IMG/VR virus record: IMGVR_UViG_3300006103_001171
DNA: 64,000 bases
Source of the DNA: an uncultured virus (IMG/VR IMGVR_UViG_3300006103_001171)
Taxonomy: Duplodnaviria; Heunggongvirae; Uroviricota; Caudoviricetes
Strand: one strand, 5' to 3'
In this document: positions 35,322 to 64,000 of the stretch, in pieces
How positions within the stretch are numbered: the first letter of the stretch is position 1
Layout of the letters: each line of letters starts with the position of its first letter
Program-made: the position numbers and the translations under genes
The notes under the pieces: model-generated
Told to the model about the DNA's origin: nothing
Databases searched by the model: none
What the model saw: the letters and a program-made list of their open reading frames with translations, nothing else

Positions 35322-35671
35322 GGGGATACAATGTATTGATTAGGTATAGTCGTACAGTGTAAGCATGTAGTGCTAGATGGAAGCACTTAAATCTCGCTAT
35401 TAAAACAAGAAAAGACAACGATTTAATCGTATCTGAAAATTTCCTTGATGAGGCTGTTTACAGCTTCGGTGGAGAGTTAGCTGTAGCCTAAAACAGCAAT
35501 AGTGGTAATCCACTTGATGATGGTAAATCCATTAAATAGTGTTAGAACACTGGTGAGACCAAATTCACCTTAAAAAGTAAGGAAAGATTCGCTGGGTTAT
35601 AAAACCTAGATAAACATGTAGAAAGCTCTAGAAGAATACTTAAGACACGGACTCATTCTCCGTTATCTCCA
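35322..35671 (+). ncRNA. ssrA: tmRNA
   Basis: Acceptor stem GGGGATA/TATCTCC-A, gcatgtag/acatgtag helix motifs, and an internal tag frame 35414..35491 (DNDLIVSENFLDEAVYSFGGELAVA*). Confidence 0.85.
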
Positions 35672-35793
35672 CTCTCATCAAGATTCCACCTAACTCACCT
35701 AGGGATTGGAACTAATAACCCCTCGCAAGTCGCTTTGTTGGGGGTTTAACTTATTAAAATAAAAAAGGGCCTTTAAAAGCCCTTTTAATTTTT

Positions 35794-36235: not shown

Positions 36236-36254
36236 AAAATATTTTTAAAAAAAC

Positions 36255-36285
36255 TTGACAAATTAAAAAACTTTTCGTATATTTG
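36255..36285 (+). promoter_or_regulatory. Conserved tRNA-array promoter, copy 1
   Basis: TTGACAaattaaaaaacttttcgTATATTTG, containing the Bacteroidota-type TAnnTTTG -7 box; near-identical copies precede all four tRNA arrays. Confidence 0.8.
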
Positions 36286-36330
36286 CATATAATTATTAAA
36301 GTAGTTCTTATACATAAAAATATTTCTAGA

Positions 36331-36502
36331 AAAATGGTTACGGCAACGTAAAAAAAAAATTCTACTATTGAAGGGGCTTGGCCACTCCCACGTCACCATT
36401 TATGGTGGATAAAAGCTGAAAAGTAAGTGGCACCTGTTATGATGGCAGTTTAAATCTAATCCTTGTAGTGGTAGCAAGCCAAAATAACACAAAAACCATT
36501 TT
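36331..36502 (+). ncRNA. Structured RNA of the stem-(C)GGCAA family
   Basis: Outer stem aaaatggtt/aaccatttt followed by acggcaa; inner ggcttg/caagcc and ccact/agtgg pairings. Confidence 0.5.
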
Positions 36503-36516
36503 GAGAAACTTATTAA

Positions 36517-36576
36517 AGAATCAGTTCAGCAAATTAAACAATTTTTTTATCTGAAACAAAAAAACAAAATGATTCT
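36517..36576 (+). ncRNA. Minimal stem-CAGCAA RNA
   Basis: agaatca/tgattct stem, gttCAGCAA, and an inner T-run/A-run hairpin. Confidence 0.5.
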
Positions 36577-36582
36577 GAAATT

Positions 36583-36656
36583 TACGTCATTGGTGTAATG
36601 AGCACGTGCCCCCACATGGGGGGGGTTTAGACCAGTATCAAATCTGGATGACGTAC
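36583..36656 (+). tRNA. Atypical tRNA-like element (CAT in loop)
   Basis: Acceptor tacgtca/tgacgta, C-rich/G-rich anticodon stem around acat, and a degenerate T arm. Confidence 0.4.
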
Positions 36657-36701
36657 TTGCGAGGTGGAGCAGTAGTAGCTCGCTAGGCCCGTAAAATACA
36701 T

Positions 36702-37677: not shown

Positions 37678-37761
37678 ACTTTCTAATTTGTTAACAATAA
37701 TATCGTATATTTGCATCAGAATAAACAAAAAGGGTCGTTAAAAAAAAAGTTTTAAAAAAAC

Positions 37762-37804
37762 TTGACAAATTAAAAAACTTTTCGTATATTTGCATATATT
37801 TATT
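37762..37804 (+). promoter_or_regulatory. tRNA-array promoter, copy 2 (host-type box plus TATTTAT box in tandem)
   Basis: TTGACA...TATATTTGcaTATATTTATT. Confidence 0.8.
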
Positions 37805-37827
37805 AATAACGAACAAAAATTATCACA

Positions 37828-37929
37828 ATGATAGCAAACATAAACAATATGATTAATTCGATAAATTGGAGACATAATAGTCGCTCAATTAATCAAGTCA
37901 TGCTATCTAGTGATGTTAATAAAATATAA
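37828..37929 (+). CDS. Putative attenuator leader peptide 1 (Ile/Asn/Met/Ser/Trp/Arg/His/Asp)
   Basis: MIANINNMINSINWRHNSRSINQVMLSSDVNKI*, between the promoter and a terminator upstream of the tRNA array. Confidence 0.75.
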   Translation: MIANINNMINSINWRHNSRSINQVMLSSDVNKI

Positions 37930-37950
37930 CAAATTAAATCACAAATAACG

Positions 37951-37988
37951 AAAAGCCTCTGACTCATACGAATCAGAGGTTTTTTTTT
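37951..37988 (+). terminator. Intrinsic terminator/attenuator of tRNA array 2
   Basis: gcctctga...tcagaggt followed by a T-run. Confidence 0.85.
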
Positions 37989-37992
37989 ACCC

Positions 37993-38166
37993 ATGTCAGA
38001 AGAAATACGATATAAGAAATTAGGTGTTGTAAAACAAAAAGACTTGGATGCTGATTTTGATTCGATATACGATAAGTATAAGAGTATTGCTTTAGAACTT
38101 GGTTTAACAGGTGATTTAAAGTTTGTAAAAGAAAAGGGTAAAGTAATAATTTACATAGCTATTTGA
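37993..38166 (+). CDS. Small hypothetical protein (57 aa) inside the attenuated transcript, not in the ORF track
   Basis: MSEEIRYKKLGVVKQKDLDADFDSIYDKYKSIALELGLTGDLKFVKEKGKVIIYIAI*. Confidence 0.55.
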   Translation: MSEEIRYKKLGVVKQKDLDADFDSIYDKYKSIALELGLTGDLKFVKEKGKVIIYIAI

Positions 38167-38182
38167 CATTTAGGAAAAACAC

Positions 38183-38283
38183 ACGTAAATGACCGAGTGG
38201 TCGAAGGTGGTAGGCTCCAACCCTACTGAGATATATAACATTTATGTTAGGTCTCCGCATAGGTTCAAATCCTATTTTACGTG
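38183..38283 (+). tRNA. tRNA-Trp (CCA) with long variable arm
   Basis: gtagg-CTCCAAC-cctac; T arm atagg-TTCAAAT-cctat; acceptor acgtaaa/tttacgt. Confidence 0.7.
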
Positions 38284-39154: not shown

Positions 39155-39222
39155 CAAATTAACTTTTTTTGTTAATTATTTGACTTTTTGTTCGAACTGT
39201 GTATATTTATAATAAAGAATAT

Positions 39223-39969
39223 ATGAAAGAAAAAATATTAGAATTAAGGAAAAATGGGTTATCAATAAATGAAATAGTTGAAGAGTTAAAGTGTGCTAAA
39301 AGTACTGTTTCATACCATATAAATAAAAACGGTTTAGGTGGTATTAGAAATAGGTTCTTAAAAGGTGTTAGTGATGAAACGATAAATAAAATTAAAATTT
39401 TTAGATTAGAGTCTAAAACATATAATGAAATTTTAGAGTTAATTGACATAAGTGAGGATAAATTAAAAAAAATTTGTCGATTATTTGAGATAAATAATAG
39501 TACTGGTGGTTTTAAACTTAAAGATGTTGATAAAGATGAGGTTATAAAGTATTATTTATCTGTAAAATCAATACGAAAAACTGCTGATTATTTTAATATT
39601 AGTAGAGACACAGTTAAAAAATATATACCTGACAATCTTATCTTAATTAAAGATAAAATAACCAAATCACAATCAGTTATTAATTGGCGTAAAAGAACAA
39701 AAATTAAATTAATTGATTATAAAGGTGGTTGTTGTGAAAAGTGTGGTTATAATAAATCTACATCAGCATTACAATTTCATCATTTAAACCCTAAAGAAAA
39801 GGATTTTCAAATTGGTGGTTCAAGTTATTCATTTGAAAATCTAAAAAAAGAAGTTGATAAATGTATATTAGTATGTGCAAATTGTCATATCGAAATACAT
39901 GAAGAATTAAGGATTTGTAGCTCAGAGGCAGAGCATTCGTTTGTTAAACGACAGGTCGAGATATCGTAA
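39223..39969 (+). CDS. HNH homing endonuclease with N-terminal HTH domains
   Basis: 'YKGGCCEKCGY...LQFHH...KCILVCANCHIEIH'; the C-terminus runs into a tRNA remnant. Confidence 0.85.
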   Translation: MKEKILELRKNGLSINEIVEELKCAKSTVSYHINKNGLGGIRNRFLKGVSDETINKIKIFRLESKTYNEILELIDISEDKLKKICRLFEINNSTGGFKLKDVDKDEVIKYYLSVKSIRKTADYFNISRDTVKKYIPDNLILIKDKITKSQSVINWRKRTKIKLIDYKGGCCEKCGYNKSTSALQFHHLNPKEKDFQIGGSSYSFENLKKEVDKCILVCANCHIEIHEELRICSSEAEHSFVKRQVEIS

Positions 39970-39982
39970 TTCTCCATTAGCG
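39911..39982 (+). pseudogene. Disrupted second copy of tRNA-Asn
   Basis: Nearly identical to 39083..39154 from the D arm onward, but the 5' acceptor strand does not pair with the 3' cattagc. Confidence 0.75.
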
Positions 39983-40356: not shown

Positions 40357-40409
40357 CTAGTTAAATGGATATTTTTTTTCTTTTTCCATTTAACGATATA
40401 TTTATTAGT

Positions 40410-40946
40410 ATGGAAAAAGAATTTTTAATTGATTGTATTAATAAAGGGTTAAGTCTAAAAAAAATAAGTAAATTATGTGGTAAAGCACCTAGTACAATAA
40501 CATATTGGTTAAATAAATTTAATTTAAAAACTAATAATTTGTCGTTTAAAGTTAAAGGAAAAATTGATTATAATAATCAAAGATGTTGCCCAAAATGTAA
40601 AATTACTAAAGAATTAAATGAATTTTATAATAGACGTGATAAAATAGGTAGTTCAGTTTATTGTAAAACTTGTACCAATAAACAAGTTTTAGATAGACAA
40701 CGGGAACTTAAGCAACAAGCTGTTGATTATAAAGGTGGGTATTGTATAATATGTGGTTATAATAAATGTAATGCGGCGTTAGAATTTCATCATTTAGAAC
40801 CAGATAAAAAAGATTTTAGCATTAGTCAATTAAAAAAATATGCCTTTACTGAAAATATAAAAAAAGAATTAGATAAATGTATTTTGTTATGTTCTAATTG
40901 TCATAGAGAATTTCATTCTGGTATTTTAATTCTAAGCAAACTATAG
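40410..40946 (+). CDS. HNH homing endonuclease
   Basis: 'YKGGYCIICGY...LEFHH...KCILLCSNCHREFH'; start taken at MEKEFL after the ATATTTATT box. Confidence 0.85.
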   Translation: MEKEFLIDCINKGLSLKKISKLCGKAPSTITYWLNKFNLKTNNLSFKVKGKIDYNNQRCCPKCKITKELNEFYNRRDKIGSSVYCKTCTNKQVLDRQRELKQQAVDYKGGYCIICGYNKCNAALEFHHLEPDKKDFSISQLKKYAFTENIKKELDKCILLCSNCHREFHSGILILSKL

Positions 40947-40969
40947 CAGTTCGAATCTGCTCGAGACCA
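40930..40969 (+). pseudogene. 3' half of a disrupted tRNA-Arg (TCT)
   Basis: TTCTAAgcaaac...gcag-TTCGAAT-ctgc-t-cgagacc-A. Confidence 0.75.
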
Positions 40970-40979
40970 CATTTTTTAT

Positions 40980-42491: not shown

Positions 42492-42809
42492 ATGGACATA
42501 CATAAGAAAATTAAAGACTTTGAAGATAGTTTAAAAATCTTTGCACACAAATTGGCTGAGCAAGGTAAAGAAACTGAGGTCGCAGCTAAAATTCTTGAGA
42601 AACACATAAAGGGTATTGATGTTACACCTGAAGAAGATGTGTTATTAAAACAAAACATTTACGATACCTTAAAAATAGCTGGAATTGGTATACCATTTAT
42701 GCTGATACCAGGTGCTAGTGTCATATTACCAGCGTTAATTATACTAGCGAAAAAAAACAATATTAATTTATTACCGTCAAAATTTATTGAAGATGAAAAA
42801 AGTAATTAA
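42492..42809 (+). CDS. Hypothetical protein with a hydrophobic segment
   Basis: ORF from MDIHKK, after a TATATTTG box. Confidence 0.55.
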   Translation: MDIHKKIKDFEDSLKIFAHKLAEQGKETEVAAKILEKHIKGIDVTPEEDVLLKQNIYDTLKIAGIGIPFMLIPGASVILPALIILAKKNNINLLPSKFIEDEKSN

Positions 42810-43725
42810 GCAAATCTTAAGAGAAAACACTGAGAAGAATATTTTAGGTATTACCGTAACAAGACCTAATCAAGAGTTGATTATTATGAGAGGAATCTCT
42901 GGTAGTGGTAAAAGCACAATGGCTAAATCATTAGTTAAGGGTGGTGTCATACATTCAACCGATGACTTAATAGAAGCAACTGGTGATTATAATGGATTCT
43001 TTGCTAAAATGATAGAAGCAAATAACTTTGCTGATTTAAGTCGTATGCACTCTAATAACCTCAAGAATGCGATGAAATCTATGGATAATGGTATAAGTCC
43101 AGTCATAATAGATAACACGAATTTAAGACCTAGTGAGGCTAAACCATACGTAATGTATGCGTTAGAGATAGGCTATGCTGATGATAATATTAAAATTGTT
43201 GATGTTGGTACTGGTGGGTTAAGTGCTGAAGCTTTAGCGGCTAGAAATTCTCATGGTGTTCCATTAGAGAATATTCAACGAATGATTAATACTTATAATG
43301 GTGTCGGCCCTTTAACTCTCAATAAAATTATTGAGGCTAGTGACATGTATAAATCATCTAATGTTTTATATTCTTGTGTTTTATTAGATGATAATTCACG
43401 TAATTTATTATTATTAACATTTGCCGATGTTATACCGAATGGATGGAAAACGATAGCACATCATATGACAATTGTTTTTGGTAAGGGTATTGACGATAAA
43501 AATGAGTTGGGTAAAGAAGTTGTATTAACAGTTACAAACGTTGGATGGAATGATAAAGCAATAGCTGTTTTGGTTGATGGTTATCCATCTAAAAATGCTA
43601 ATCCACATATTACATTAGCTATTAATCCAGATGGTGGTAAACCTAAGGATTCTAATGAAATTACAGATTGGAAAAAAATTAGACCATTTAAAATAAATGG
43701 TGTTGTGACAGAAATTAAAAAATAA
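42793..43725 (+). CDS. Polynucleotide kinase (P-loop) fused to a 2H cyclic phosphodiesterase
   Basis: 'RGISGSGKST' and 'IIDNTN'; C-terminal 2H motifs 'HMTI' and 'HITLA'. Confidence 0.8.
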   Translation: MKKVIKQILRENTEKNILGITVTRPNQELIIMRGISGSGKSTMAKSLVKGGVIHSTDDLIEATGDYNGFFAKMIEANNFADLSRMHSNNLKNAMKSMDNGISPVIIDNTNLRPSEAKPYVMYALEIGYADDNIKIVDVGTGGLSAEALAARNSHGVPLENIQRMINTYNGVGPLTLNKIIEASDMYKSSNVLYSCVLLDDNSRNLLLLTFADVIPNGWKTIAHHMTIVFGKGIDDKNELGKEVVLTVTNVGWNDKAIAVLVDGYPSKNANPHITLAINPDGGKPKDSNEITDWKKIRPFKINGVVTEIKK

Positions 43726-43771
43726 ATTTGTTTGTTTGGTTTCTATTCTGTATATTTGCAAAAAGTTTTTT

Positions 43772-44146
43772 ATGACAAAAGAAGAAAGAAGGCTTGACCT
43801 AAGCGGTAAGCTATTAAAAATGGGTGAGTCTTTAATATTAGAGGGTCGAGATTCTATGGATGGTTGTGTCATGGAAACTGGTAGTGCGTTAATTTTATTG
43901 GCTAATATCATTGAATCAGAAGATGATATGTTTGTTTTTGGTGAATTTGTATCTATGTTTTCAGCTAAGAAAGTATTAGAGGAAATGGAAAATAAGAAAA
44001 AACCTAATACAACTGAAGATTTACTAAAGGAAATTCTTGATTCATTTAAGAATGTCGGTAGTGATTTACCAAAAGAAACACCCAAAAAGACTCGTAGACC
44101 AAGAAAAAAAAGAAACGACAATGATGAACCAGAATCTGGTTCATAA
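43772..44146 (+). CDS. Hypothetical protein
   Basis: ORF from MTKEER. Confidence 0.55.
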   Translation: MTKEERRLDLSGKLLKMGESLILEGRDSMDGCVMETGSALILLANIIESEDDMFVFGEFVSMFSAKKVLEEMENKKKPNTTEDLLKEILDSFKNVGSDLPKETPKKTRRPRKKRNDNDEPESGS

Positions 44147-44169
44147 TTTTTAATATTAAAAAATAAAAT

Positions 44170-44760
44170 ATGTTAGCAATAGTAGAATACATAAAGAAAA
44201 ATGGTTTAGATAATGCTATCGAAACTTTTAATTTAAAGGCTAAATTATACGAAAATAAGGTTCACATTAAATATGACCAAATAGGTTCGGATATGTCTCT
44301 TAAGGAGGTTCAAGAATGTCGTGGACTTATCCTAGATAGAAATACATTTGATGTAATCTCAATGTCCTTTTTCAAGTTCTTTAATAACGGTGAAACTAAT
44401 GCTGCTAAGATAGACTGGGATACAGCTCATGTATTTGAAAAAGTTGATGGTTGCCTTGATGAAAATACGTTGATAACGACTAATGAAGGTGTTAAAACGA
44501 TTAAGGAAATTTGTGAAGAAAAACTTAATTGTAAAGTCTTGTCATATTGGGTTAATAGTAATGAGATTATCTTTGATGATATAATTGGATGGTCAATTAA
44601 GGATAATATTAATGATTGGTATGAAATTAAATTGGATGACGAAACTTCAATTAAACTGACTGGTAATCATAAGGTTTGGTTACCAAAGCTAAATTGTTAT
44701 AGACAAGTTTCAGATTTAACGGAAGCGGATGAATTCTTATTAAGTACTAAAAAAAATTAA
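44170..44760 (+). CDS. T4 Rnl1-like RNA ligase N-extein fused to split intein N part
   Basis: 'ECRGLIL', 'KFFN', motif I 'EKVDG', immediately followed by intein block A 'CLDENTLI' and block B 'LTGNHKV'. Confidence 0.88.
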   Translation: MLAIVEYIKKNGLDNAIETFNLKAKLYENKVHIKYDQIGSDMSLKEVQECRGLILDRNTFDVISMSFFKFFNNGETNAAKIDWDTAHVFEKVDGCLDENTLITTNEGVKTIKEICEEKLNCKVLSYWVNSNEIIFDDIIGWSIKDNINDWYEIKLDDETSIKLTGNHKVWLPKLNCYRQVSDLTEADEFLLSTKKN

Positions 44761-45146
44761 ATTCTGGCAGCAATGTTTCAAATTTAGAAAAACGAATTGG
44801 TTATACTTTAGATAATTTAAATATTAAATTTGAAACTCAATATTTAATTAATAGGTTTTCTTATGATTATTATATCAATGATATAAATTTATTAATAGAG
44901 GTTAATGGTGATTTTTGGCGTGCTAACCCAATAAAATATTTACCTGATGATATATTACCATTTCCGAAAAGTATTGAAATTAAAGCCAAAGATTTATGGT
45001 TAAAGGATAAACGAAAGAATGAATTAGCGATTAAAAATGGTTTTAATATAGTTACAATTTGGGAAATGGAGATTAATAATTTAAATAGTGTTGAACTTGA
45101 AATATTTTTGTTAAATAAATTAAATAACTTTATAAATGGAGACTAA
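44751..45146 (+). pseudogene. Start-less Vsr/DUF559-like endonuclease frame between the intein halves
   Basis: -1 frame open from the A8 run: ..SNLEKRIGYTLDNLNIKFETQY..YDYY..LLIEVNGDFWRANP..KDKRKNELAIKNGFNIVTIWE..; no upstream ATG. Confidence 0.75.
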
Positions 45147-46098
45147 CGTAGTTAAAATAAAATCAATTAAAAAAATTGATTCTAATTCGAAAAGATATGA
45201 CATACAAACAAAATTAACTAATAACTTTTTCGCTAATAATATTCTAGTTCATAACTCGATGATGCAAGTTTATTGGGACCCTTACGCTAATAAGTGGTTT
45301 GCTGGAACTACAGGTACTGCCGAAGGTGAGGGTGAAGTAAACAATAAGTCTGGGACAACGTTTAATGATTTGTTTTGGCAAGTTGTAAACGACAAAGCTC
45401 CAAATATGCTTAGGTGGTTAAATAAGTTAAAGCATTGCACGTTTGTGTTTGAATTAACAACACCTTATAACATTGTGGTTAAGCCGCATGGTGAATCTAG
45501 TATTACACTTTTAGCTGCAAGAGATAATCAAACACTTAAAGAGTTAAGGTATATTGATTTAAAGGTATTAGCAACAACTTTTGGTGTGCCAATAGTTAAA
45601 TTATTCGACTTAAAAGCTAAGAACTTTGGTGACTTGATTAGAACATTTGAAGGAATGCCATGGTCTGAAGAAGGTTATGTCGTAATGGATGAAAACTTCA
45701 ATCGTGTTAAAGTTAAGAACCCAGCATACTGCGCTGTACATTTACTAAAAGGTAAATCAGCTGAACATAACATTTTAACAATCGTTAAGTCTAACGAAAT
45801 TGAAGAATTCGCATCAACTTTCCCAGAAAGAAAAGAAGAATTATTTAAGCTTAAGGCCAACTACGATTTGTTGAATGCAAAGTTAAATTCAGTGTGGGAT
45901 GAACTAATACCAAGAAAGCCTAAAAACATAACAGCTAATGAAAAGAAGTTGTTTGCGGCTGCTGTATTTGAAGTTTGTAAGAAGCATAAGGTTGATAATT
46001 TCACTGGGTTATTCTTCCAATTGGAAGCTGGTAAAATAGAATCAGTTGATGAGTATTTGATGGAATATGACAATAAAAAGTTGTACCATATACTTTAA
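45136..46098 (+). CDS. Split intein C part fused to RNA ligase C-extein
   Basis: 'VKIKSIKKI..RYDIQT..NNFFANNILVHN|S', followed by ligase motifs 'FEL', 'EGYVV' and 'RVKVKN'. Confidence 0.88.
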   Translation: METNVVKIKSIKKIDSNSKRYDIQTKLTNNFFANNILVHNSMMQVYWDPYANKWFAGTTGTAEGEGEVNNKSGTTFNDLFWQVVNDKAPNMLRWLNKLKHCTFVFELTTPYNIVVKPHGESSITLLAARDNQTLKELRYIDLKVLATTFGVPIVKLFDLKAKNFGDLIRTFEGMPWSEEGYVVMDENFNRVKVKNPAYCAVHLLKGKSAEHNILTIVKSNEIEEFASTFPERKEELFKLKANYDLLNAKLNSVWDELIPRKPKNITANEKKLFAAAVFEVCKKHKVDNFTGLFFQLEAGKIESVDEYLMEYDNKKLYHIL

Positions 46099-46158
46099 AA
46101 AATAAATTTGGTGGAATGAAAGTTCCACCTTATTTTTGCACTCTAAATAAAATAAACA

Positions 46159-46890
46159 ATGACAATTAAGCAAATTTTCGATGAAATCGCAAGCGAATCA
46201 TCTACGAACAAAAAAGTTGAAATCCTTAACAAGTATAAAGACAATGACTTATTAAAGAGGGTTCTGTATTTGGCTAATTCACCTCGTATTAAGTTTTATA
46301 TCAAGCAAATTCCAGAGTATGAATCTGGTCCATTTAATCAAGACTTATCAGTTGGTTTGGATAGCTTGAGTCCATTATCCTTAAGGCAATTAACTGGACA
46401 TGCTGCCATAAATCACTTAGCTGCAACTCTTGAGTTTTGTAGCGAAGATGATGCTTATATCATCGAGCGTATCATCGAAAAGGATTGCAAAATTAATTTG
46501 GGTACTTCACTTATTAATAAAGTATTTCCTAAACTAATTGAAGAAACACCTTACATGGGTGCTAAGGCTTTTGATGAGAAATTAGCTAAGGCTATATTTA
46601 AAGATGGTTCAGCTTTAAGCCAAGTTAAGATGGATGGTCGTTATTGCAATGCTGTAATAGCGAATAATTCAGTTGATATGGAAAGCCGCCAAGGTGAACC
46701 AACGCTATTAGGTGATGCGTATTTTATAAGCGAATTAAATCAGCTTAAGGATTGCGTTTTAAACGGTGAGTTGACAATGAAGTGTATTGAATCTAAATTT
46801 ACTTTTAATAAAGACGATTTAATCGAAATTGACGGTATTAAATATACCACCAAAGAAATAAAAAATAAATTTTTACCATTAATTGAATAA
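46159..46890 (+). CDS. ATP-dependent DNA ligase, N-terminal half of a split gene
   Basis: Motif I 'KMDGRY', motif III 'VLNGEL', then a 35-aa non-ligase tail. Confidence 0.85.
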   Translation: MTIKQIFDEIASESSTNKKVEILNKYKDNDLLKRVLYLANSPRIKFYIKQIPEYESGPFNQDLSVGLDSLSPLSLRQLTGHAAINHLAATLEFCSEDDAYIIERIIEKDCKINLGTSLINKVFPKLIEETPYMGAKAFDEKLAKAIFKDGSALSQVKMDGRYCNAVIANNSVDMESRQGEPTLLGDAYFISELNQLKDCVLNGELTMKCIESKFTFNKDDLIEIDGIKYTTKEIKNKFLPLIE

Positions 46891-46928
46891 AATGAAAGTT
46901 CAACATATTTATAAATAAATATAAATTT

Positions 46929-47825
46929 ATGTATGTAACTTATTTAATTATTTATAATGGTGATAAATTACCACCATTATATATTGGGTCAACTAGTTTA
47001 GAAAAAATAGAGAATGGGTATCGAGGGTCAATCTCATCGAAGAAATATAAAAATATTTTTAAAGAAGAGTTAAAAAGTAATTTTAACCTATTCGATGTTA
47101 TCATTCTATCAAAACATGAAACTAGAATTGAAGCATTGGAAATGGAATTAGATTTACAAAAAAAGTTTGATGTGGTAAAATCAAATAAATTTATGAATCA
47201 ATCCTTAGCATCAGTTAATGGCATGTTTGGTATGGATGTAAATGGTAAAAATAACCCAATGTTTGGTAAGAAACATTCAGACAAAACAAGAAATGTACTA
47301 AAGGAAAAACGTGGAAATAATAAACGATATGAATTAACCGATAAACATAAAGAAATTATTAGTAAAACACACGCTAATAAAGTTATTTCTGAAAACACAA
47401 AAAAATTAATTTCAGATAAATTAAAGGGTAAATACATAGGTAAAGATAATCCTATGTTTGGTAAAAAACATAGTGAAGAGACTAAAATTAAAATATCTAA
47501 AAGTAACAGTGGTAAAATTAGAACAGATGAATTCAAACAAAGAACATCCGAATTAAATAAGGGTAAAATTATTTCTGAAGATACCAAGATAAAAATATCT
47601 AGGGCTAAAATCGGAAAAAAACGTACTTCTTTTAGTAAAGAGTGGCGAGAAAATATATCTAAAGCTAATAAAGGTAGAATTCTTAGTGAAGAAACTCGAA
47701 AAAAACTGAGTAAACCAAGAGAATCAACAAAATCGGTATGCCCATATTGTGGGTTTATTGGTGGTGGCGGTAATATGAAACGCTATCATTTTGAGAATTG
47801 TAAAATAAATAAAAATAAGGTATGA
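46929..47825 (+). CDS. GIY-YIG-like homing endonuclease with NUMOD3 repeats
   Basis: 'YVTY...LYIGST', repeated 'NPMFGKKHS.ET', and C-terminal 'CPYC...MKRYHFENCK'. Confidence 0.85.
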   Translation: MYVTYLIIYNGDKLPPLYIGSTSLEKIENGYRGSISSKKYKNIFKEELKSNFNLFDVIILSKHETRIEALEMELDLQKKFDVVKSNKFMNQSLASVNGMFGMDVNGKNNPMFGKKHSDKTRNVLKEKRGNNKRYELTDKHKEIISKTHANKVISENTKKLISDKLKGKYIGKDNPMFGKKHSEETKIKISKSNSGKIRTDEFKQRTSELNKGKIISEDTKIKISRAKIGKKRTSFSKEWRENISKANKGRILSEETRKKLSKPRESTKSVCPYCGFIGGGGNMKRYHFENCKINKNKV

Positions 47826-48652
47826 ACATTAATTCTAATGAAATAAAAAAAATAATAGTTAATAACGATGGTAGTCTTGAAATATTGACAATGAAGGGTA
47901 TATCTCGTTACGAGAGCAACGGCATCATAGCATCTCTTATTTCAATTAGAAAGAAAGAATTAGATGGTAAGGATGTACGCAAGGAAATACTTGAGTTTGA
48001 AAAAGAACACATGGTTTATCAAACAGCGTTGGATTCAATTATTTTCACTGCTTGGGATATGATAACACTTGAAGAATATACTGCCGCTAAATCAGTTAGA
48101 CAATATCGTGAAAGATACGCTGAATTGGTTGCGCTATTAAACGCTAATAATTTTACCAATCTTTCAGTTGTTGAAACAAAAGAGGTTAAGACTTATGAAG
48201 AAGCTATTGAACACTTTCAAGAGGTTTTAGCTAGAGGTGAAGAAGGTACAATACTTAAATCATCTAAGGGTGCTTGGAAAGACGGTAAACCTAACCATCA
48301 AATTAAGCTAAAAAAAGAAATTAATCTTGATTTAAAAATTGTAGGTTTTAATTACGGAACGGGTAAAAATAAAGACGTTATATCATCCATTGATGTTGAG
48401 AGTTCAGATGGTTTACTTAAAACGAGCCCGACAGGAATTAATGAATCTATGATGAAATTTATCACAGAAAATCAGGATAAACTTTTGAACACTATTATTG
48501 AGGTAAAGTGTTCTGGGTTGTCAAAGGATTCAGATGGTAATTATTCTTTGTTACACCCAGTATTCAAATCTTTACGTACTGATGAAAAGAGTATTGCTGA
48601 TTCATTAGATGAGTGTATTAAAATAGATAAAGCTGCTATGGGGTTATCTTAA
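47822..48652 (+). CDS. ATP-dependent DNA ligase, C-terminal half
   Basis: 'RYESNG', 'WDMI', motif IV 'EEGTILK', motif V 'KLK', and OB-fold 'HPVF..LR.D'. Confidence 0.85.
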   Translation: MNINSNEIKKIIVNNDGSLEILTMKGISRYESNGIIASLISIRKKELDGKDVRKEILEFEKEHMVYQTALDSIIFTAWDMITLEEYTAAKSVRQYRERYAELVALLNANNFTNLSVVETKEVKTYEEAIEHFQEVLARGEEGTILKSSKGAWKDGKPNHQIKLKKEINLDLKIVGFNYGTGKNKDVISSIDVESSDGLLKTSPTGINESMMKFITENQDKLLNTIIEVKCSGLSKDSDGNYSLLHPVFKSLRTDEKSIADSLDECIKIDKAAMGLS

Positions 48653-48830
48653 CGGCGTACCAACCAATATACATTTTATTAGCAATTAATACTTCTTTTT
48701 TAATTGTATTTCCTTGGTATATTGGTTTACCATTATTGTAATAAGATTTTCTTAATGCCTTCGTTGGTAAACCATTTGTTTTACATATTGTTTCAAAATT
48801 ACCGTTACACATGAACATAAGTAAGTTTAT

Positions 48831-49247
48831 TTGTTAAAAAAACAATGGGTGAAGAATAATCATCAAGGTGTAAATGAATATCGTAAAAATTACTATTTAA
48901 ATAATAAAGAAAAAATACTAACAAAAAATAAAGAATGGAATAAAAAAAATGCGCATATTGTATCTTGGCGCACCATTTTGAAATCGCAACTTAGGAGAAT
49001 GGGTAATAGTAAAGAAGGAAAAACAATTGATTTATTAGGGTATTCAGCGTTAGAACTGAAAAACCATATCGAATCCTTATTTACTGAAGGTATGACTTGG
49101 GATAATCATGGTGAATGGCATATTGACCATAAAATACCCGTAACTAAATTTGAAAAAAATGTTCCTCCACATATTGTAAATGCGTTAAATAATTTACAAC
49201 CATTATGGGCGAACGAAAACAGAAGTAAATATAATAAAATTTTATAA
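48831..49247 (+). CDS. HNH-type endonuclease (possibly truncated)
   Basis: 'GMTWDNHGEWHIDH..P...NLQPLWA.EN..K'. Confidence 0.7.
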   Translation: MLKKQWVKNNHQGVNEYRKNYYLNNKEKILTKNKEWNKKNAHIVSWRTILKSQLRRMGNSKEGKTIDLLGYSALELKNHIESLFTEGMTWDNHGEWHIDHKIPVTKFEKNVPPHIVNALNNLQPLWANENRSKYNKIL

Positions 49248-49263
49248 ATTAAAAATAATTGAA

Positions 49264-50097
49264 ATGACAAGTAAACGACATATCGGGTTTCCATCTATTG
49301 ACCAGTTTAAGACAGTTGTCTCCAACATCAATAGAAGACACAATTTTGTTGGTTTGGATGCCAACGGTGATGCAATTTATGACCCATCAAAACCTAAGCC
49401 AAAGCTTAAGTTTAAGGGTACGGTAAAACTACATGGTACCAACTTCGGTGTATGTTATAATGACATCGCTGGATTATGGGCACAATCTAGGGAAAATATA
49501 ATCACCTCCCAAAAAGATAATGCTGGCTCCGCTTTTTTTGTTGAGTCCAATACAGAAGCTTTCTTGGATTTATTTAACCAAGTAAAGAATAAGTTAAATT
49601 TGGATTTGACTCAAAACACAATTTCAATTTATGGTGAGTGGGCTGGTAAGGGTATTCAAAAGTCTGTTGCGATTTCCAATTTGGATAAGTCTATGTTTAT
49701 TTTTGGTGTTAAGATTACACCTCATCCAAAGGATGAAGATGATAAGACACCAGCTTATTGGGTTGATTCGTCATACCTAAGGAACCATGAGCATAGGATT
49801 TACAATATTGAGGATTATGAGACTTATGAGATTGAAATCGATTTCAATTATCCTCAATTGGCTCAGAATAAGCTAATTGAAATGACTATTGCTGTTGAGG
49901 ATGAATGTCCTGTTGGTAAAGCCTTTGGTCATGTTGCGTTAACAGACAATACAGCATATGAAGAAAATGGTAAAATTTGGTTTGAACGAGAAAATAGTTT
50001 TACAGATATATTAAAAAATCAATTAATTGATGAATTTAGAATACTTCGTAATAAATATCCGATAGGTATAAATAAAATATTTTTTACTATTCTATAG
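49264..50097 (+). CDS. Rnl2-like RNA ligase, N-terminal half of a split gene
   Basis: Motif I 'KLHGTN', 'QSR', 'IYGEW' and 'FIFG', then a roughly 55-aa non-ligase tail after 'CPVGKAFG'. Confidence 0.8.
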   Translation: MTSKRHIGFPSIDQFKTVVSNINRRHNFVGLDANGDAIYDPSKPKPKLKFKGTVKLHGTNFGVCYNDIAGLWAQSRENIITSQKDNAGSAFFVESNTEAFLDLFNQVKNKLNLDLTQNTISIYGEWAGKGIQKSVAISNLDKSMFIFGVKITPHPKDEDDKTPAYWVDSSYLRNHEHRIYNIEDYETYEIEIDFNYPQLAQNKLIEMTIAVEDECPVGKAFGHVALTDNTAYEENGKIWFERENSFTDILKNQLIDEFRILRNKYPIGINKIFFTIL

Positions 50098-56872: not shown

Positions 56873-56894
56873 AAAAATATTTTTAAAAAAAAAC

Positions 56895-56937
56895 TTGACA
56901 ATTCAAAAACTTTTCGTATATTTGCAGTATATTTATT
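56895..56937 (+). promoter_or_regulatory. tRNA-array promoter, copy 3
   Basis: TTGACAattcaaaaacttttcgTATATTTGcagTATATTTATT. Confidence 0.8.
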
Positions 56938-56961
56938 AAAAGAGATTAAAAGATAACAAAA

Positions 56962-57042
56962 ATGAGAAATTTAAACAACATATTGGTCCTTGTGTTATGT
57001 GTGCTAGTGTTAACTAGTTCTACTGGGTATTCCATGTTTTAA
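56962..57042 (+). CDS. Putative attenuator leader peptide 2 (Leu/Cys/Val)
   Basis: MRNLNNILVLVLCVLVLTSSTGYSMF*; codons 8-17 are ttg gtc ctt gtg tta tgt gtg cta gtg tta. Confidence 0.75.
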   Translation: MRNLNNILVLVLCVLVLTSSTGYSMF

Positions 57043-57066
57043 ATTTAACATTTAAAAATAATTGAG

Positions 57067-57097
57067 AAGCTCAGTCCGAAAGAACTGAGCTTTTTTT
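57067..57097 (+). terminator. Intrinsic terminator/attenuator of tRNA array 3
   Basis: aagctcagt-ccgaaaga-actgagctt followed by a T-run, ending just before tRNA-Cys. Confidence 0.85.
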
Positions 57098-60212: not shown

Positions 60213-62531
60213 ATGAAATTATATAAATTATATTCCCAATTACTTAACGAGGATTTTAAATCACAAACTGTTAATTTTATCAGACAAGGATTTGAACCAG
60301 ATATTGTTAAGTCATACATTGATAAATTCAAACACATACGAGATAATAAATACAAAGAAATCTTTGATGAAAATTTAAAAGTATCTGTACCTTCAAAAGA
60401 AAGGTTAAATATTGATGCTTATAAAAATTTCCATGATTTGGAGGTTGTTGTTGATTATGTATCTGGTAAAAGAGCCGTCAATACCAATATGACAAAAGGC
60501 GGTAAAGAAAATATTGAAGTTGATGGAACCCCAATTTATGATGATAAAAATTATGAAGTTTATTATGCTGATACACCTAGAGCTTGTATAAAGTATAAGG
60601 GTAAATTTCCGTATTCTTGGTGTGTTGCTAGGTCGGATTCAGCGAATATGTTTTACACTTATCGTTTTAAACCCTACGAACCAGCTTTTTATTTCATTAA
60701 GAATAAAAAGGAAACTGATAAGGAATTTAGTCTTTGGAACATGGGTAAGAATGTGTTTCAAGGTAAATTTAGTAACCCTTATCACTTTTTTGTTATTCAA
60801 GTTCCAAAAAATGCAAATATTGATGATAACAAAACACAACAGTATATTGTAACATCAGCAAATAATGATGGTGATAAACAAATGAGTTGGGATGAAATTA
60901 TTGCTATAAATCCTAATTTAAATTCAATTAAAGAAGTCTTAGTACCTAAACCACTCAGTGAAGGTGAAAGAAAGAAAATTGAAAGATTTAAAAATGGTAT
61001 TAATGATAAGGAATTTGCTAAGTTAACCTATGAAGAAAAAAGAGATTATCTGGATATATACCCAACAATTGGTAGACCAATAACATCAAAACAATTAAAG
61101 GAGTTACCAGATGACCTACTAAATTTATATGTTTCTTTTGGTATTGGTTTAGATGATGAAGGTTTTGAATTTATAAAACCTAAAAAAGACATTCTTAAAA
61201 GATATGCTCAAATAAGCAAAAGAAAACTTGAAGAATACTTAAAAACAGACAATTATCAGAGAAAACAACTTAAGATGATGTATAGTGAGTTAATTGTTTT
61301 ATCCGATGAAGACATTAAGAGTTATTTGGAAAGTTTAAAACCTTATGAGATAAAACAATTTATACGTTTAAATGGTGAAGATAAATTTGAATTATTAGAA
61401 AAGCATTTACCTGATAAATTTGGTGCTCAGTTTCAATCTAATAAACAGCTTATTTTAATGGCCCAGTCTGGTGATGAAGAAGCATTAAACAAATTAGCTT
61501 CATTAATACCAGAAGATATCGAATTTGATTTTTATGGTAAGTACATAGTATTTGAATTTGACAATACTGATAGTGAAAAGTTAAAAAGAGAATTAGATAA
61601 CGATACATTGGATTTTTATAGTAGACTAGATTATAACGAATGGAATAGCAGTTATAATAATGATTATTATTTTGATGATGAATCTTCCCTAAATGATACT
61701 TACGATTTTCATATTGAATCGGTGTTAAAAGATGATGAAACACTAAGAGATGATTTACTTAGAATTGGAATCCAACCAGATTTAGAGTCTGTTAAGGATT
61801 TATTAGTAACATATAAAAAAGATTCATCAATTAAAGAATACATGGAAGAAAAGTATTCAGAAGGTAGAGATAATGCTCAAGAAAAAACATGGGAAAAACT
61901 TAGGGATGGTATAAAATCAATAGCTTATATTGATGATTATCGTAATTATAGTGTTTATATTAATGTTGCTTCTTTTGTATTTTACTTGAACGATAATGAA
62001 TTTTTAACATCGGATATTGATAATTTTATTACAAAAATGGCATATTTACTTGAAAATATAATGGAGGATAACGACCAAATTAGTTATGTTGAAAGCATGT
62101 ATGATGAGGTAAATGAAGGTGGTTATGATTTTACCGTTGGTAATGAAGTAAATGAAAGAGTTAAAAGTGAGATTCAAGATGCCATATATGAATTTACATC
62201 TCAAGATGATGAAGATGAAACAGATTATGCGAATAATTTAGATTCATCAAAAATTCATAAACTTAAAGGTGAGGTTATTAAATTATTAAATGATACACTT
62301 CGTAATCTAGGTCAATCAGAAACTGCGTCAACAATTGAAAATGACATTGTAAGAATTGATATTGATAGACAAAGATTCCATTTAGATGGTAAAGTATTTG
62401 TTAGTATAACTGACAAACAAAATAATAAAAAACATGATGGTTATGTTTATATAAAAGACTTACCAACTTACTTTAAAAATTATAAATTGTTTGAAACAAT
62501 ACAAAGAATAAAATCAATAATTAAGTATTAA
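60213..62531 (+). CDS. Large hypothetical protein
   Basis: 772-aa ORF with 'ACIKY...SWCVA' motif and an acidic C-terminal half. Confidence 0.75.
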   Translation: MKLYKLYSQLLNEDFKSQTVNFIRQGFEPDIVKSYIDKFKHIRDNKYKEIFDENLKVSVPSKERLNIDAYKNFHDLEVVVDYVSGKRAVNTNMTKGGKENIEVDGTPIYDDKNYEVYYADTPRACIKYKGKFPYSWCVARSDSANMFYTYRFKPYEPAFYFIKNKKETDKEFSLWNMGKNVFQGKFSNPYHFFVIQVPKNANIDDNKTQQYIVTSANNDGDKQMSWDEIIAINPNLNSIKEVLVPKPLSEGERKKIERFKNGINDKEFAKLTYEEKRDYLDIYPTIGRPITSKQLKELPDDLLNLYVSFGIGLDDEGFEFIKPKKDILKRYAQISKRKLEEYLKTDNYQRKQLKMMYSELIVLSDEDIKSYLESLKPYEIKQFIRLNGEDKFELLEKHLPDKFGAQFQSNKQLILMAQSGDEEALNKLASLIPEDIEFDFYGKYIVFEFDNTDSEKLKRELDNDTLDFYSRLDYNEWNSSYNNDYYFDDESSLNDTYDFHIESVLKDDETLRDDLLRIGIQPDLESVKDLLVTYKKDSSIKEYMEEKYSEGRDNAQEKTWEKLRDGIKSIAYIDDYRNYSVYINVASFVFYLNDNEFLTSDIDNFITKMAYLLENIMEDNDQISYVESMYDEVNEGGYDFTVGNEVNERVKSEIQDAIYEFTSQDDEDETDYANNLDSSKIHKLKGEVIKLLNDTLRNLGQSETASTIENDIVRIDIDRQRFHLDGKVFVSITDKQNNKKHDGYVYIKDLPTYFKNYKLFETIQRIKSIIKY

Positions 62532-62587
62532 AACTAGTTCTTAAAGTCACTAAAAAAAAAATTTTTTAAAAATAATTCAAAAAAAAC

Positions 62588-62629
62588 TTGACAATTCAAA
62601 AACTTTTCGTATATTTGCATATATTTATT
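62588..62629 (+). promoter_or_regulatory. tRNA-array promoter, copy 4
   Basis: TTGACAattcaaaaacttttcgTATATTTGcaTATATTTATT. Confidence 0.8.
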
Positions 62630-62653
62630 AACAACAAGTAACAATTAAAAGAT

Positions 62654-62752
62654 ATGAAAAAGGCATATACATATTATCAACCGAAAACGCAAGGGGGCAA
62701 AACTCCTAATAGGCTGGGTGTATCTTTTTCTGATGAAGATGATTGTAAGTAA
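62654..62752 (+). CDS. Putative attenuator leader peptide 3 (Tyr/Thr/Gln/Pro/Gly/Lys)
   Basis: MKKAYTYYQPKTQGGKTPNRLGVSFSDEDDCK*. Confidence 0.75.
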   Translation: MKKAYTYYQPKTQGGKTPNRLGVSFSDEDDCK

Positions 62753-62772
62753 ACAATTAGTAAGATATAAGT

Positions 62773-62809
62773 AAACCCCAGTCTGATGAAAATTCAAACT
62801 GGGGTTTTT
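62773..62809 (+). terminator. Intrinsic terminator/attenuator of tRNA array 4
   Basis: aaaccccagt...actggggttttt, ending just before tRNA-Pro. Confidence 0.85.
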
Positions 62810-62815
62810 AATTTT

Positions 62816-62890
62816 CGGGAAGTTCCACAGATGGCTATATGGGCTTGTTTTGGAGACAAGTGTTCGCTCGTTCGAATCGAGTTTTCCCGA
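62816..62890 (+). tRNA. tRNA-Pro (TGG)
   Basis: cttgt-TTTGGAG-acaag; acceptor cgggaag/tttcccg-A. Confidence 0.75.
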
Positions 62891-62939
62891 CACAGATTGG
62901 TTGGTACCGTAGACAGCAAAAATAAGGAACGGTATAAAA

Positions 62940-63027
62940 CTAAGTGTGTAGTCAATCGAAGACGACTCCCTTTGGAGCGGAGAATAGCTGTAAAAGGCTT
63001 ATGCAGGTTCGAGCCCTGTCACTTAGA
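62940..63027 (+). tRNA. tRNA-Pro (TGG)-like, long variable arm
   Basis: Acceptor ctaagtg/cacttag, TTTGGAG loop, gcagg-TTCGAGC-cctgt. Confidence 0.55.
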
Positions 63028-63034
63028 CTAAAAT

Positions 63035-63106
63035 TGGGTTGTGGTGTAATGGTAACTACGTGTGGTTTTGGTCCACAAGTTTGGGGTTCGAGTCCCTACA
63101 ACCCAA
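63035..63106 (+). tRNA. tRNA-Gln (TTG)
   Basis: tgtgg-TTTTGGT-ccaca. Confidence 0.85.
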
Positions 63107-63191
63107 CAAAGTAAAGAAGTAATTGGGTTAGCTGTTTTCCGTGGCTGGTCTGATGAAGGTTAAGTCCTTATGATTAAATAACGGATAAATT

Positions 63192-63263
63192 GGGATAGCC
63201 AGCAGGGTTCTGAAGACAGTCTGTAAAACTGAACTTCGTGTGTTTCGAGTACACCCTATCCCA
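63192..63263 (+). tRNA. tRNA-Tyr (GTA), atypical short form
   Basis: cagt-CTGTAAA-actg; acceptor gggatag/ctatccc-A. Confidence 0.55.
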
Positions 63264-63268
63264 CATTT

Positions 63269-63350
63269 GGGTCAGTCGCATAGAGGCAATTGCCGCGGAC
63301 TGTAAATCCGCTCTCTTCGGAGTTCACAGGTTCGAGTCCTGTTTGGCCCA
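63269..63350 (+). tRNA. tRNA-Tyr (GTA)
   Basis: gcgga-CTGTAAA-tccgc; long variable arm. Confidence 0.85.
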
Positions 63351-63358
63351 CAAAAAAT

Positions 63359-63429
63359 GCCTCCAAAGCATATATGGTGATGTACCTGACTTGTAATCAG
63401 GGAAGTTGATTCGAGTTCAACTGGAGGCT
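63359..63429 (+). tRNA. tRNA-Thr (TGT)
   Basis: cctga-CTTGTAA-tcagg. Confidence 0.8.
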
Positions 63430-63450
63430 CAAGAGTCTTATATAAAAAAT

Positions 63451-63522
63451 GCGGATATAGCACAGTGGTTAGTGTTGGGGTCTTCCAAACCTCAGACGTC
63501 AGTTCGAATCTGACTATCCGCT
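63451..63522 (+). tRNA. tRNA-Gly (TCC)
   Basis: ggggt-CTTCCAA-acctc; acceptor gcggata/tatccgc-T. Confidence 0.85.
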
Positions 63523-63681
63523 CATTGGCTAATTTATTTTATAAAATAAATTTGTTTTGATTATGGAAAAAAATTGACTTTTATTGTATTTATATGTATA
63601 TTTGTGACGTAAAAAAGTTTTATAAATAGTGCTTTTGAAATATCTAAGCCACACATAACAAATAAAAATTAATTAATTAAA

Positions 63682-63954
63682 ATGGATTTAAAGTCTGGTA
63701 TCAGAAATCCCGAACAGTTACGGGTTGCAATTGAGATTGCTAAGTTAAATAATGAATTTTATTCTGATGCTGTATGGGCAATCCATAAGTATAAGTGGTA
63801 TAATTGGTATCAGAATCTGCACATTAAAGAAAATAGTCTAGAGGATATTGAGAATACTAAAATCTTTAATCAATTAGAAACTGAATATCCGAGTATTCAT
63901 GTGGATATTGAAAAAAATATTGATTATGAGATTATTAAAGCTAGTGCAAATTAA
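63682..63954 (+). CDS. Hypothetical protein
   Basis: 90-aa ORF followed by a hairpin and T-run. Confidence 0.55.
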   Translation: MDLKSGIRNPEQLRVAIEIAKLNNEFYSDAVWAIHKYKWYNWYQNLHIKENSLEDIENTKIFNQLETEYPSIHVDIEKNIDYEIIKASAN

Positions 63955-64000
63955 TTTAAGATTTAAAAAGACGTAGAAATACGTCTTTTTTTATTTAGTT

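Follow-up and report, generated by a model that had tools for sequence, protein, structure and literature searches.

Among described regulatory leaders, the closest to the element considered here are the multivalent leader-peptide attenuators of enterobacteria, such as the thr leader with its Thr and Ile codons and the ilvGMEDA leader with its Ile, Leu and Val codons (trpL, hisL, leuL and pheL belong there as well), and the T-box riboswitches of Firmicutes, which are leaders of aminoacyl-tRNA synthetase and amino-acid genes that sense transfer RNA (tRNA). Control of the tRNA genes themselves is commonly placed at the promoter, via growth rate and the stringent response. In phages, tRNA clusters are known as a means of countering anticodon nucleases or the depletion of host tRNAs, as with the tRNA genes of T4 and T5 and the Pnk/Rnl1 repair of T4, and the reason for such arrays is debated between codon-usage compensation and escape from tRNA-targeting defences; a 2026 paper reportedly finds that Septu cleaves tRNA-Tyr. 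We know of no codon-matched leader or terminator gating for tRNA clusters of the T4/T5 type, nor of any earlier case of tRNA genes whose switching depends on how fast their own codons are decoded, and a full-text literature search on leader-peptide or attenuator control of tRNA genes or phage tRNA arrays found no such control described in the portions of text that it returned. Here, we analyzed a stretch of 64,000 nucleotides (nt) from an uncultured Caudoviricetes virus (IMG/VR record IMGVR_UViG_3300006103_001171), called the window below, which is AT-rich (about 30% G+C) phage-like DNA with 20 tRNA genes by ARAGORN. Near its end, a short open reading frame (ORF), Leader 3, stands in front of a tRNA array; we consider it likely that this element works as a multivalent attenuator of transcription of the leader-peptide (ribosome-mediated) kind, which controls entry into a tRNA operon of this lake phage and feeds back on tRNA supply.

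The layout of the module can be seen directly: a promoter, an ORF whose codons match the tRNAs encoded further on, a terminator, and then the tRNA genes, with two pairings competing for the same arm of the terminator. The leader start lies 35 nt past the promoter box, and a short ORF between promoter and tRNA genes is found in 33/33 modules of the types A to D defined below. The module is made up as follows.

62587–62631, + strand: promoter, with TTGACA at 62588–62593, a 16-nt spacer, TATATT(TG) at 62610–62617 and conserved first transcribed bases TATATTTATTAA.
62654–62752, + strand: leader ORF (Leader 3), 32 codons, 32 amino acids (aa) in the ORF listing of the window, MKKAYTYYQPKTQGGKTPNRLGVSFSDEDDCK; homologues of the same composition in eight further distinct modules.
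62657–62707, + strand: proposed regulatory block, codons 2–18, with Lys, Tyr, Thr, Gln, Pro or Gly throughout bar Ala-4.
62692–62707, + strand: predicted local hairpin within the 3′ part of the block (AGGGG/CTCCT; −6.6 kcal/mol, z −3.32), with hairpins at the equivalent place in the folds of other leader types.
62710–62718, + strand: predicted 5′ strand of the antiterminator, TAGGCTGGG, codons 19–22; the same position (codons 19–25) is the best partner in 9/9 type-C modules.
62719–62775, + strand: predicted inner helices of the antiterminator, spanning the 3′ end of the ORF, the stop codon and a 23-nt spacer.
62776–62815, + strand: intrinsic terminator, with its 5′ arm at 62776–62786, loop at 62787–62793, 3′ arm at 62794–62804 and T-rich tail at 62805–62815.

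The mechanism that we propose can be told from these parts. The strong, conserved promoter would give a transcript whose first ~190 nt hold the 32-codon ORF, and the tRNAs for which the downstream genes code (Pro, Gln, Tyr, Thr and Gly, with Lys added in relatives) would read codons 2–18. We infer that this ORF is translated, close behind RNA polymerase, and that translation and transcription are thereby coupled; the direction of the switch and its physiological signal would be the following. With quick decoding, the ribosome would pass codons 19–22 and run on to the stop codon, the antiterminator hairpin (62708–62787) would melt, the terminator at 62776–62815 would then form, and transcription would stop 5 nt short of the first tRNA. 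If any codon of the block is slow, its tRNA being scarce, damaged or uncharged, the ribosome would stall in the 5′ part of the block; 62710–62718, left free, would together with the inner helices capture the emerging 5′ arm of the terminator (62776–62786), and RNA polymerase would read into the array. Since the array yields the tRNAs by which the block is read, such a circuit would be a negative feedback on decoding capacity, in which a tRNA set is made when the decoding capacity for that very set runs short. One may add that the local hairpin at 62692–62707 could possibly serve as a pause site for RNA polymerase. Comparison among the modules lends strong support to the codon match and good but incomplete support to the switch.

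The match itself is simple to count. Of codons 2–18 of Leader 3 (KKAYTYYQPKTQGGKTP), three each code for Tyr and Thr and two each for Gln, Pro and Gly, i.e., 12 of the 17; the others are four Lys and one Ala, and the cognate share becomes 16/17 once Lys is counted. A preliminary description of this locus, made from the letters alone, had given the same 12 residues, a count that we reproduce exactly, and had matched them to a Pro/Gln/Tyr/Thr/Gly array; all five types are indeed called downstream by ARAGORN, Pro by ARAGORN only. The unit continues as follows.

62816–62891, + strand: tRNA-Pro(TGG), ARAGORN; unusual D arm, no Rfam hit at E ≤ 10.
62940–63028, + strand: 89-nt tRNA-like gene of uncertain identity, ARAGORN Pro(tgg); Rfam 20.9 bits, cut-off 29.
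63035–63107, + strand: tRNA-Gln(TTG), ARAGORN; Rfam 53.9 bits.
63269–63351, + strand: tRNA-Tyr(GTA), ARAGORN; Rfam 48.3 bits.
63359–63430, + strand: tRNA-Thr(TGT), ARAGORN; Rfam 48.2 bits.
63451–63523, + strand: tRNA-Gly(TCC), ARAGORN; Rfam 66.9 bits; final gene of the unit in this phage.
63574–63605, + strand: next promoter-like site (TTGACT, 17 nt, TATATT(TG)), where the Leader 3 unit ends.

As Rfam confirms neither Pro gene, the Pro identity in the window is that of ARAGORN alone. The equivalent of the second gene in the relative L002 is called Ser(gga) by ARAGORN, which is an alternative reading of the second gene of type-C arrays. The gap of 160 nt between the Gln and Tyr genes (63108–63268) received no call from ARAGORN or Rfam; by eye, it shows an acceptor stem and a T arm, together with an anticodon loop reading GTA, and it may be a decayed copy of tRNA-Tyr.

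The block holds synonymous codons that are rare, namely CCG (4% of Pro codons), ACG (7%), GGG (6%) and GGC (6%), and its rarity was matched by only 240 of 20,000 codon draws for the same peptide; AT bias therefore does not explain the block, which bears out the earlier remark that its GC-rich codons go beyond such bias.

The same arrangement is found elsewhere, both in the window and in relatives. The Leader 3 promoter scores 11/12 in a sigma-70-type scan, an identical 33-mer stands at 56894 too, and the same promoter heads all related modules. In the window, its extended form (about 60 nt) heads four near-identical units, at 36254, 37761, 56894 and 62587, three of which carry a short ORF, a terminator and then a tRNA array; besides Leader 3, these are the following.

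56894–57097, + strand: sister module of Leader 1, with its promoter at 56894–56926, ORF at 56962–57042 (MRNLNNILVLVLCVLVLTSSTGYSMF) and terminator at 57069–57097, then tRNA-Cys and three tRNA-Leu.
37761–37988, + strand: sister module of Leader 2, with its promoter at 37761–37794, ORF at 37828–37929 (MIANINNMINSINWRHNSRSINQVMLSSDVNKI) and terminator at 37956–37988.

The Leader 2 module precedes a 57-aa ORF and then a Trp/Ser/His/Ile/Met/Asn/Arg/Arg/Ser array. The lone tRNA-Phe of the same phage provides a control from within: a plain promoter lies immediately before it, and there is no leader.

A scan for the promoter in public viral and metagenome contigs gave, with the window, 38 distinct promoter modules. 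A matched leader is carried by 33 of them, which fall into type A (Cys, Val, Leu; 10 modules), type B (Trp, Ser, His, Ile, Met, Asn, Arg; 8), type C (Pro, Gln, Tyr, Thr, Gly, Lys; 9) and type D (Phe, Glu, Asp, Ala; 6), L093 being a type-D module that the crude classifier had put under B; the other five stand before tRNA-Met genes and lack a matched ORF. The four amino-acid sets are disjoint and jointly make up all 20 amino acids. A type-D leader, for example, begins MRTLTNIFDFAFFAAEEDY and stands before Glu, Asp, Ala and Phe tRNAs, and in the relatives G002 and G003, Cys, three Val and five to six Leu tRNAs follow ILVLCLCVLVL, while Pro, an unassigned gene, three Gln, Tyr, two Thr, Gly and two to three Lys(ttt) follow KKTYTYYQPKTQGGKTP. 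Where such long arrays are available, the leader/array fit is, on the calls made, complete. Other than the Ser(gga) mentioned above, off-set ARAGORN calls are few: a long “Val(cac)” in two type-B arrays, a Met(cat) in one type-D array and a Thr(agt) in another.

The four Lys codons of Leader 3 had been a caveat of the preliminary description, which had called for a search for tRNA-Lys in relatives. The Lys(ttt) genes of G002 and G003 lie after tRNA-Gly, and in G002, the one in which this was checked, there is no promoter box from the leader promoter to the end of the Lys genes, so that Lys sits in the same promoter-to-promoter interval; as relatives carry tRNA-Lys in the same unit, the caveat is removed. 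An array kept without its ORF, the contrary case named at the time, was not found among the modules, where every type A–D array behind the promoter has the ORF. Across diverged contigs, the type-C leaders permute their residues (KKAYTYYQPKTQGGKTP, MTTKTYQKQYQPKGGTPQGTTGY, NTYTTYQYKQPQGGTT, RTYNTYQPKQKTQGGKTP); judged from these leaders, composition is kept, and neither sequence nor order. One has to keep in mind that the sets also separate chemically similar residues (Lys from Arg, Thr from Ser, Tyr from Phe, Gln from Glu and Asn, Leu/Val from Ile/Met), a split that would be predicted by selection on tRNA identity and not by selection on a folded or membrane peptide.

In order to estimate how often such a match arises by chance, we used as statistic the longest run with at most one non-member of an amino-acid set, and drew random peptides from the composition of the 49 long ORFs of the window. 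For the Pro/Gln/Tyr/Thr/Gly set, the block of Leader 3 is 11 residues long, a length reached by 3 of 100,000 random peptides and, among the 254 six-frame ORFs of 20–40 aa in the window, by Leader 3 alone (the runner-up reaches 7). With Lys added, as in the arrays of relatives, it grows to 17 residues, which none of 100,000 random peptides attained, the runner-up among the small ORFs being at 9. Taking own-type sets, which include Val, Trp and Lys that ARAGORN did not call in the window's arrays, 11/25, 25/32 and 18/31 residues of Leaders 1, 2 and 3 belong to the set of their own type, against at most 9/25, 3/32 and 6/31 for foreign types; the corresponding blocks (10, 21 and 17 residues) were each matched by 0/100,000 random peptides, and none of the other small ORFs (254 in all) attained them. 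When leaders were scored against the tRNAs actually found downstream, 16 of the 32 distinct leader/array pairs reached blocks seen in at most 20 of 20,000 simulated peptides. Under strict wobble rules, 10/25 to 19/32 ORF codons in relatives can be decoded by the tRNAs of their own unit, whereas units of another type read 8 at most.

The only named relative, found via a 772-aa neighbour protein (46% identity), is the distant, uncultured 595-kilobase (kb) phage LR756511.1, which has 60 Rfam tRNA hits and was kept as a negative control only. The shared promoter is absent from it, and upstream of the 35 arrays or singletons examined there, no small ORF has a matching block of more than 4 residues; as a module-bearing relative it is thus ruled out, having neither promoter nor matched leaders.

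We now turn to the switch. The terminator (62773–62815) folds at −17.7 kcal/mol (z −4.61), its 5′ end lies 23 nt past the stop codon and its tail ends 5 nt before the first tRNA; the promoter/terminator scan of the window reported this hairpin on the − strand only. In an alignment of the nine type-C sequences (A1), 100% of the terminator cells are paired, and a hairpin with a T-run begins 23–31 nt after the stop codon in 33/33 leaders. As to its competitor, the segment aggctggg (62711–62718) had been said to pair with cccagtct (62777–62784) in the terminator 5′ arm, giving 8 pairs with one G-U; this is borne out, and RNAduplex extends the pairing to 9 (62710–62718 with 62777–62785) at −14.6 kcal/mol, a value reached by 0/300, 3/200 and 4/500 mononucleotide shuffles of the upstream region, the arm being lengthened by 5 nt in the run of 500. 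The whole antiterminator (62708–62787) is predicted as a long imperfect hairpin of −21.5 kcal/mol (z −3.58), stabler than the terminator. With a ribosome masking codons 8–16 and the 3′ arm not yet made, the folds give the antiterminator.

The best partner of the terminator 5′ arm lies at codons 18–25, directly after the block, in all type-A and type-C modules, with shuffle fractions of at most 0.054 in 9/9 type-C modules and of 0.000–0.146 in the 10 type-A modules. Partner and arm change together from module to module (ACTGGG/CCCAGT, GATGGG/CCCATT, AGTCAGG/CCTGATT, AGTCGAG/CTCGACT, GGACTGG/CCTAGTCC), and across 30 modules the 3′ part of the ORF paired better with its own arm than with permuted arms in 2000/2000 permutations. 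Of the antiterminator cells in alignment A1, 91.7% are paired; sliding the partner lowers this to 51.4% at most. The antiterminator is well supported for type C (Leader 3) and type A (Cys/Val/Leu), and weakly supported for types B and D. On sequence, then, the earlier reading of an array-matched leader, with codons that AT bias does not account for and a competitor for the 5′ arm, holds, and it recurs in two sister modules and in 33 distinct modules.

Several observations weigh against our interpretation and should be set out together. On the side of the tRNAs, both “Pro” genes are unconfirmed by Rfam, and 16 of the 32 leader/array pairs are individually non-significant, most of them with short units or few tRNAs called and many cut by contig or locus ends. 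The known sequence of this phage amounts to about 200 kb, made up of the IMG/VR records G001 and G005, the window being the end of G001 joined to the start of G005; in these 200 kb, tRNAs for Lys, Val, Glu, Asp and Ala are absent from the ARAGORN calls, so that 4 of the 17 codons of the Leader 3 block (Lys) and the Val codons of Leader 1 have no cognate tRNA there. On the side of the switch, the antiterminator is weak in type B (shuffle fractions 0.078–0.222) and in most of type D (0.092–0.828; L093 0.054). Covariation in type C is non-significant, with one pair changed on both sides, 44 of 500 shuffles reaching the score, and little variation to work with; the permutation tests mentioned above overstate independence because the modules are related. 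Full-length minimum-energy folds are the terminator in nearly every modelled state, L068 with a stalled ribosome being the exception in view, so that the switch would have to be, for the most part, a kinetic one. Lastly, in type C a ribosome at the stop codon would cover the inner helices and not 62710–62718, which lies about 5 codons further upstream; as this strand would not be covered, the off state would depend on the melting of the inner helices. No convincing anti-antiterminator, i.e., a partner for 62710–62718 inside the block, was seen in the folds.

Two further observations may be added here. In the about 200 kb of this phage (loci L028 and L112–L120), there is no type-D (Phe/Glu/Asp/Ala) array, and relatives have Val and Lys tRNAs as well as type-D arrays; arrays and leaders may be out of step in this lineage. 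A near-identity search of the phage collection with 61000–64000 returned no match.

The explanation that best withstands these data besides attenuation by stalling, and which we nevertheless hold to be unlikely, is that the ORF is translated and matched to its array and acts in some other way, either with the opposite polarity (efficient translation leading to read-through, a positive feedback) or on precursor processing or stability, through RNase P/E entry. The lack of a convincing antiterminator in types B and D speaks for it, as does the preference of full-length folds for the terminator in almost every modelled state, and the direction of the switch is itself read from the letters. Types A and C, on the other hand, have a conserved partner of the 5′ arm just after the block, which fits read-through induced by a stall, and the stop codon lies 23–31 nt before the stem in 33/33 modules, a distance at which a terminating ribosome cannot itself block the hairpin.

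Granting an attenuator of this kind, one may ask whether it senses amino-acid starvation, as trp, his and thr do, rather than tRNA supply. Stalling reports charged tRNA, so that a limiting amino acid would stall the ribosome too, and the architecture equals that of amino-acid attenuators. The regulated genes, though, are tRNAs, which would bring no relief of an amino-acid shortage; the leaders sample synonymous codons for different isoacceptors of their arrays (Leu TTA/TTG/CTT/CTA, Arg AGA/CGC, Gly GGG/GGC, Thr ACA/ACG/ACT), and such isoacceptor-specific sampling, e.g., AGA with CGC or GGG with GGC, would speak against it; the RNA-repair genes that adjoin the arrays would likewise point to tRNA integrity. 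We therefore give starvation sensing a small chance and regard the supply of the tRNAs themselves as the more likely signal. That the ORFs are ordinary small phage genes with their own terminators, matching the arrays by chance or compositional bias, is very improbable: Leader 1 does look like a hydrophobic helix of a signal or membrane peptide (LVLVLCVLVL) and AT-rich genomes do favour Ile, Asn, Lys and Tyr codons, but blocks that 0–3 of 100,000 random peptides reach, unique among 254 small ORFs, in four disjoint sets that make up all 20 amino acids and match each its own array in 33 modules, with composition kept and order not, rare GC-rich codons, and nothing similar in the control phage LR756511.1, are hardly to be had that way.

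Some features around the promoters and sister modules deserve mention in their own right. The −10/−7 promoter box TTCGTATATTTGCA has 9 copies in the window, all on the + strand, and a sigma-70 family gene (17485–18330; regions 1.2, 2 and 4) lies directly behind one of them (17447). A Bacteroidetes-style promoter pattern with a 19-nt spacer gave a chance-level match only and was replaced by the real sequence of the promoter. The stretch before the promoter-like site at 63574 looks homologous, by eye, to the stretch after the three tRNA-Lys of G002. The fourth unit with an extended promoter (36254–36700; promoter 36254–36287) continues with about 400 nt of tRNA-like and hairpin elements and then two tRNA-Met, with no matched leader; a short ORF in it, MVTAT, was considered as a leader and rejected, being without conservation in relatives. 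Downstream of Leader 2, the 57-aa ORF (37993–38166) between terminator and tRNA-Trp has no Pfam match, and in relatives it has the same start and a similar N-terminal sequence by eye. The tRNA that follows (38183–38283) is 101 nt long, scores 53.4 bits with Rfam and was missed by ARAGORN; by eye, it has the anticodon CCA (Trp) and an insertion after the anticodon arm, and relatives have a normal tRNA-Trp at its place. Inside array B, the ORFs 39199–39969 and 40365–40946 are HNH/HTH endonuclease-like; the first ends within a further, incomplete tRNA-Asn-like copy (30.7 bits with the Rfam tRNA model, 39911–39974) and the second ends beside a duplicate of the tRNA-Arg(tct) 3′ half (~40925–40970, by eye), so that both look like homing insertions into tRNA genes. 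Finally, a tRNA with a CTA anticodon (amber-reading, labelled Pyl by ARAGORN), possibly a stop-codon suppressor, is called in relatives (L023:18578–18653) and on this phage's own contig (locus L112 near 16359; G005:56359), each time behind a plain promoter box.

The genes that lie between and beside the arrays include two groups of note. An RNA-repair cluster (42787–50097) comprises an AAA_33 kinase/phosphoesterase with a tRNA-ligase CPD domain (42787–43725), a T4 Rnl1-like RNA ligase, apparently split by an intein (44170–44760 and 45136–46098), an ATP-dependent ligase domain (47822–48652) and a second RNA ligase (49264–50097); these neighbours would fit a setting where tRNA damage matters. 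A gene resembling transfer-messenger RNA (tmRNA) at 35322–35674 scores 46.1 bits, just under the Rfam cut-off of 47, and follows immediately on a ClpP protease gene, with a full-length DnaJ gene nearby (34478–35173 and 32742–33752, respectively); from these assignments, the three form a putative phage-borne set for ribosome rescue and proteolysis beside the tRNA arrays. It is tempting, and we put it forward as a tentative idea only, to see in the four leader types autonomous feedback regulons that cover all 20 amino acids, each gated by an ORF in which the codons of its own tRNAs are sampled, and that form, with the RNA-repair genes, an inducible counter-defence, in which cleavage or depletion of host tRNAs, through anticodon nucleases or shut-off, would be sensed as stalling and answered by a burst of replacement tRNAs of just the affected set.

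If our interpretation of the codon-matched attenuator is right, it would be the first case known to us in which the rate of decoding of their own codons switches tRNA genes; the phage would treat tRNAs as inducible spare parts, and the debate on the purpose of phage tRNA arrays would become directly testable. A sensor for up to seven amino acids, with the code split over four such sensors, would also offer a compact design from nature on which sensors of translation capacity could be modelled.

How, then, does the element compare with what has been described? Rfam gives no family for it: cmscan of 35000–64000 and 62560–63560 at permissive E-values found no match to Trp_leader, His_leader, Thr_leader or Leu_leader and no T-box riboswitch, the only leader match being a weak one to L10_leader (23.7 bits, cut-off 44). 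With the T-box, the element would have in common a choice between terminator and antiterminator set by the state of a specific tRNA pool; the T-box, however, makes direct contact with uncharged tRNA, using a specifier codon and its T-box sequence and no translation, whereas the phage element has an ORF and would sense several tRNAs at once. With the clusters of T4 and T5, it shares a phage-borne tRNA set adjoining RNA-repair genes; unlike those clusters, the arrays here appear to be inducible units. The closest kinship is with the enterobacterial attenuators, with which it shares a promoter, a short leader rich in sensor codons, an intrinsic terminator and, after the sensor codons, a segment that can pair with the terminator 5′ arm; sensing by ribosome speed and several amino acids per leader would be further common traits. 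The classical family covers genes for amino-acid biosynthesis and transport, and since the genes downstream are here tRNAs, the phage element is not a plain member of the leader-peptide attenuators. It differs from the enterobacterial ones in being phage-borne, in having no separate anti-antiterminator (1:2) identified, and in its leaders, which hold up to seven amino-acid types each, split the whole code among four, and interleave their sensor codons instead of setting them in homopolymeric runs. Above all, where the enterobacterial attenuators regulate biosynthetic enzymes, the phage element would regulate tRNA genes, whose product would feed back directly on decoding.

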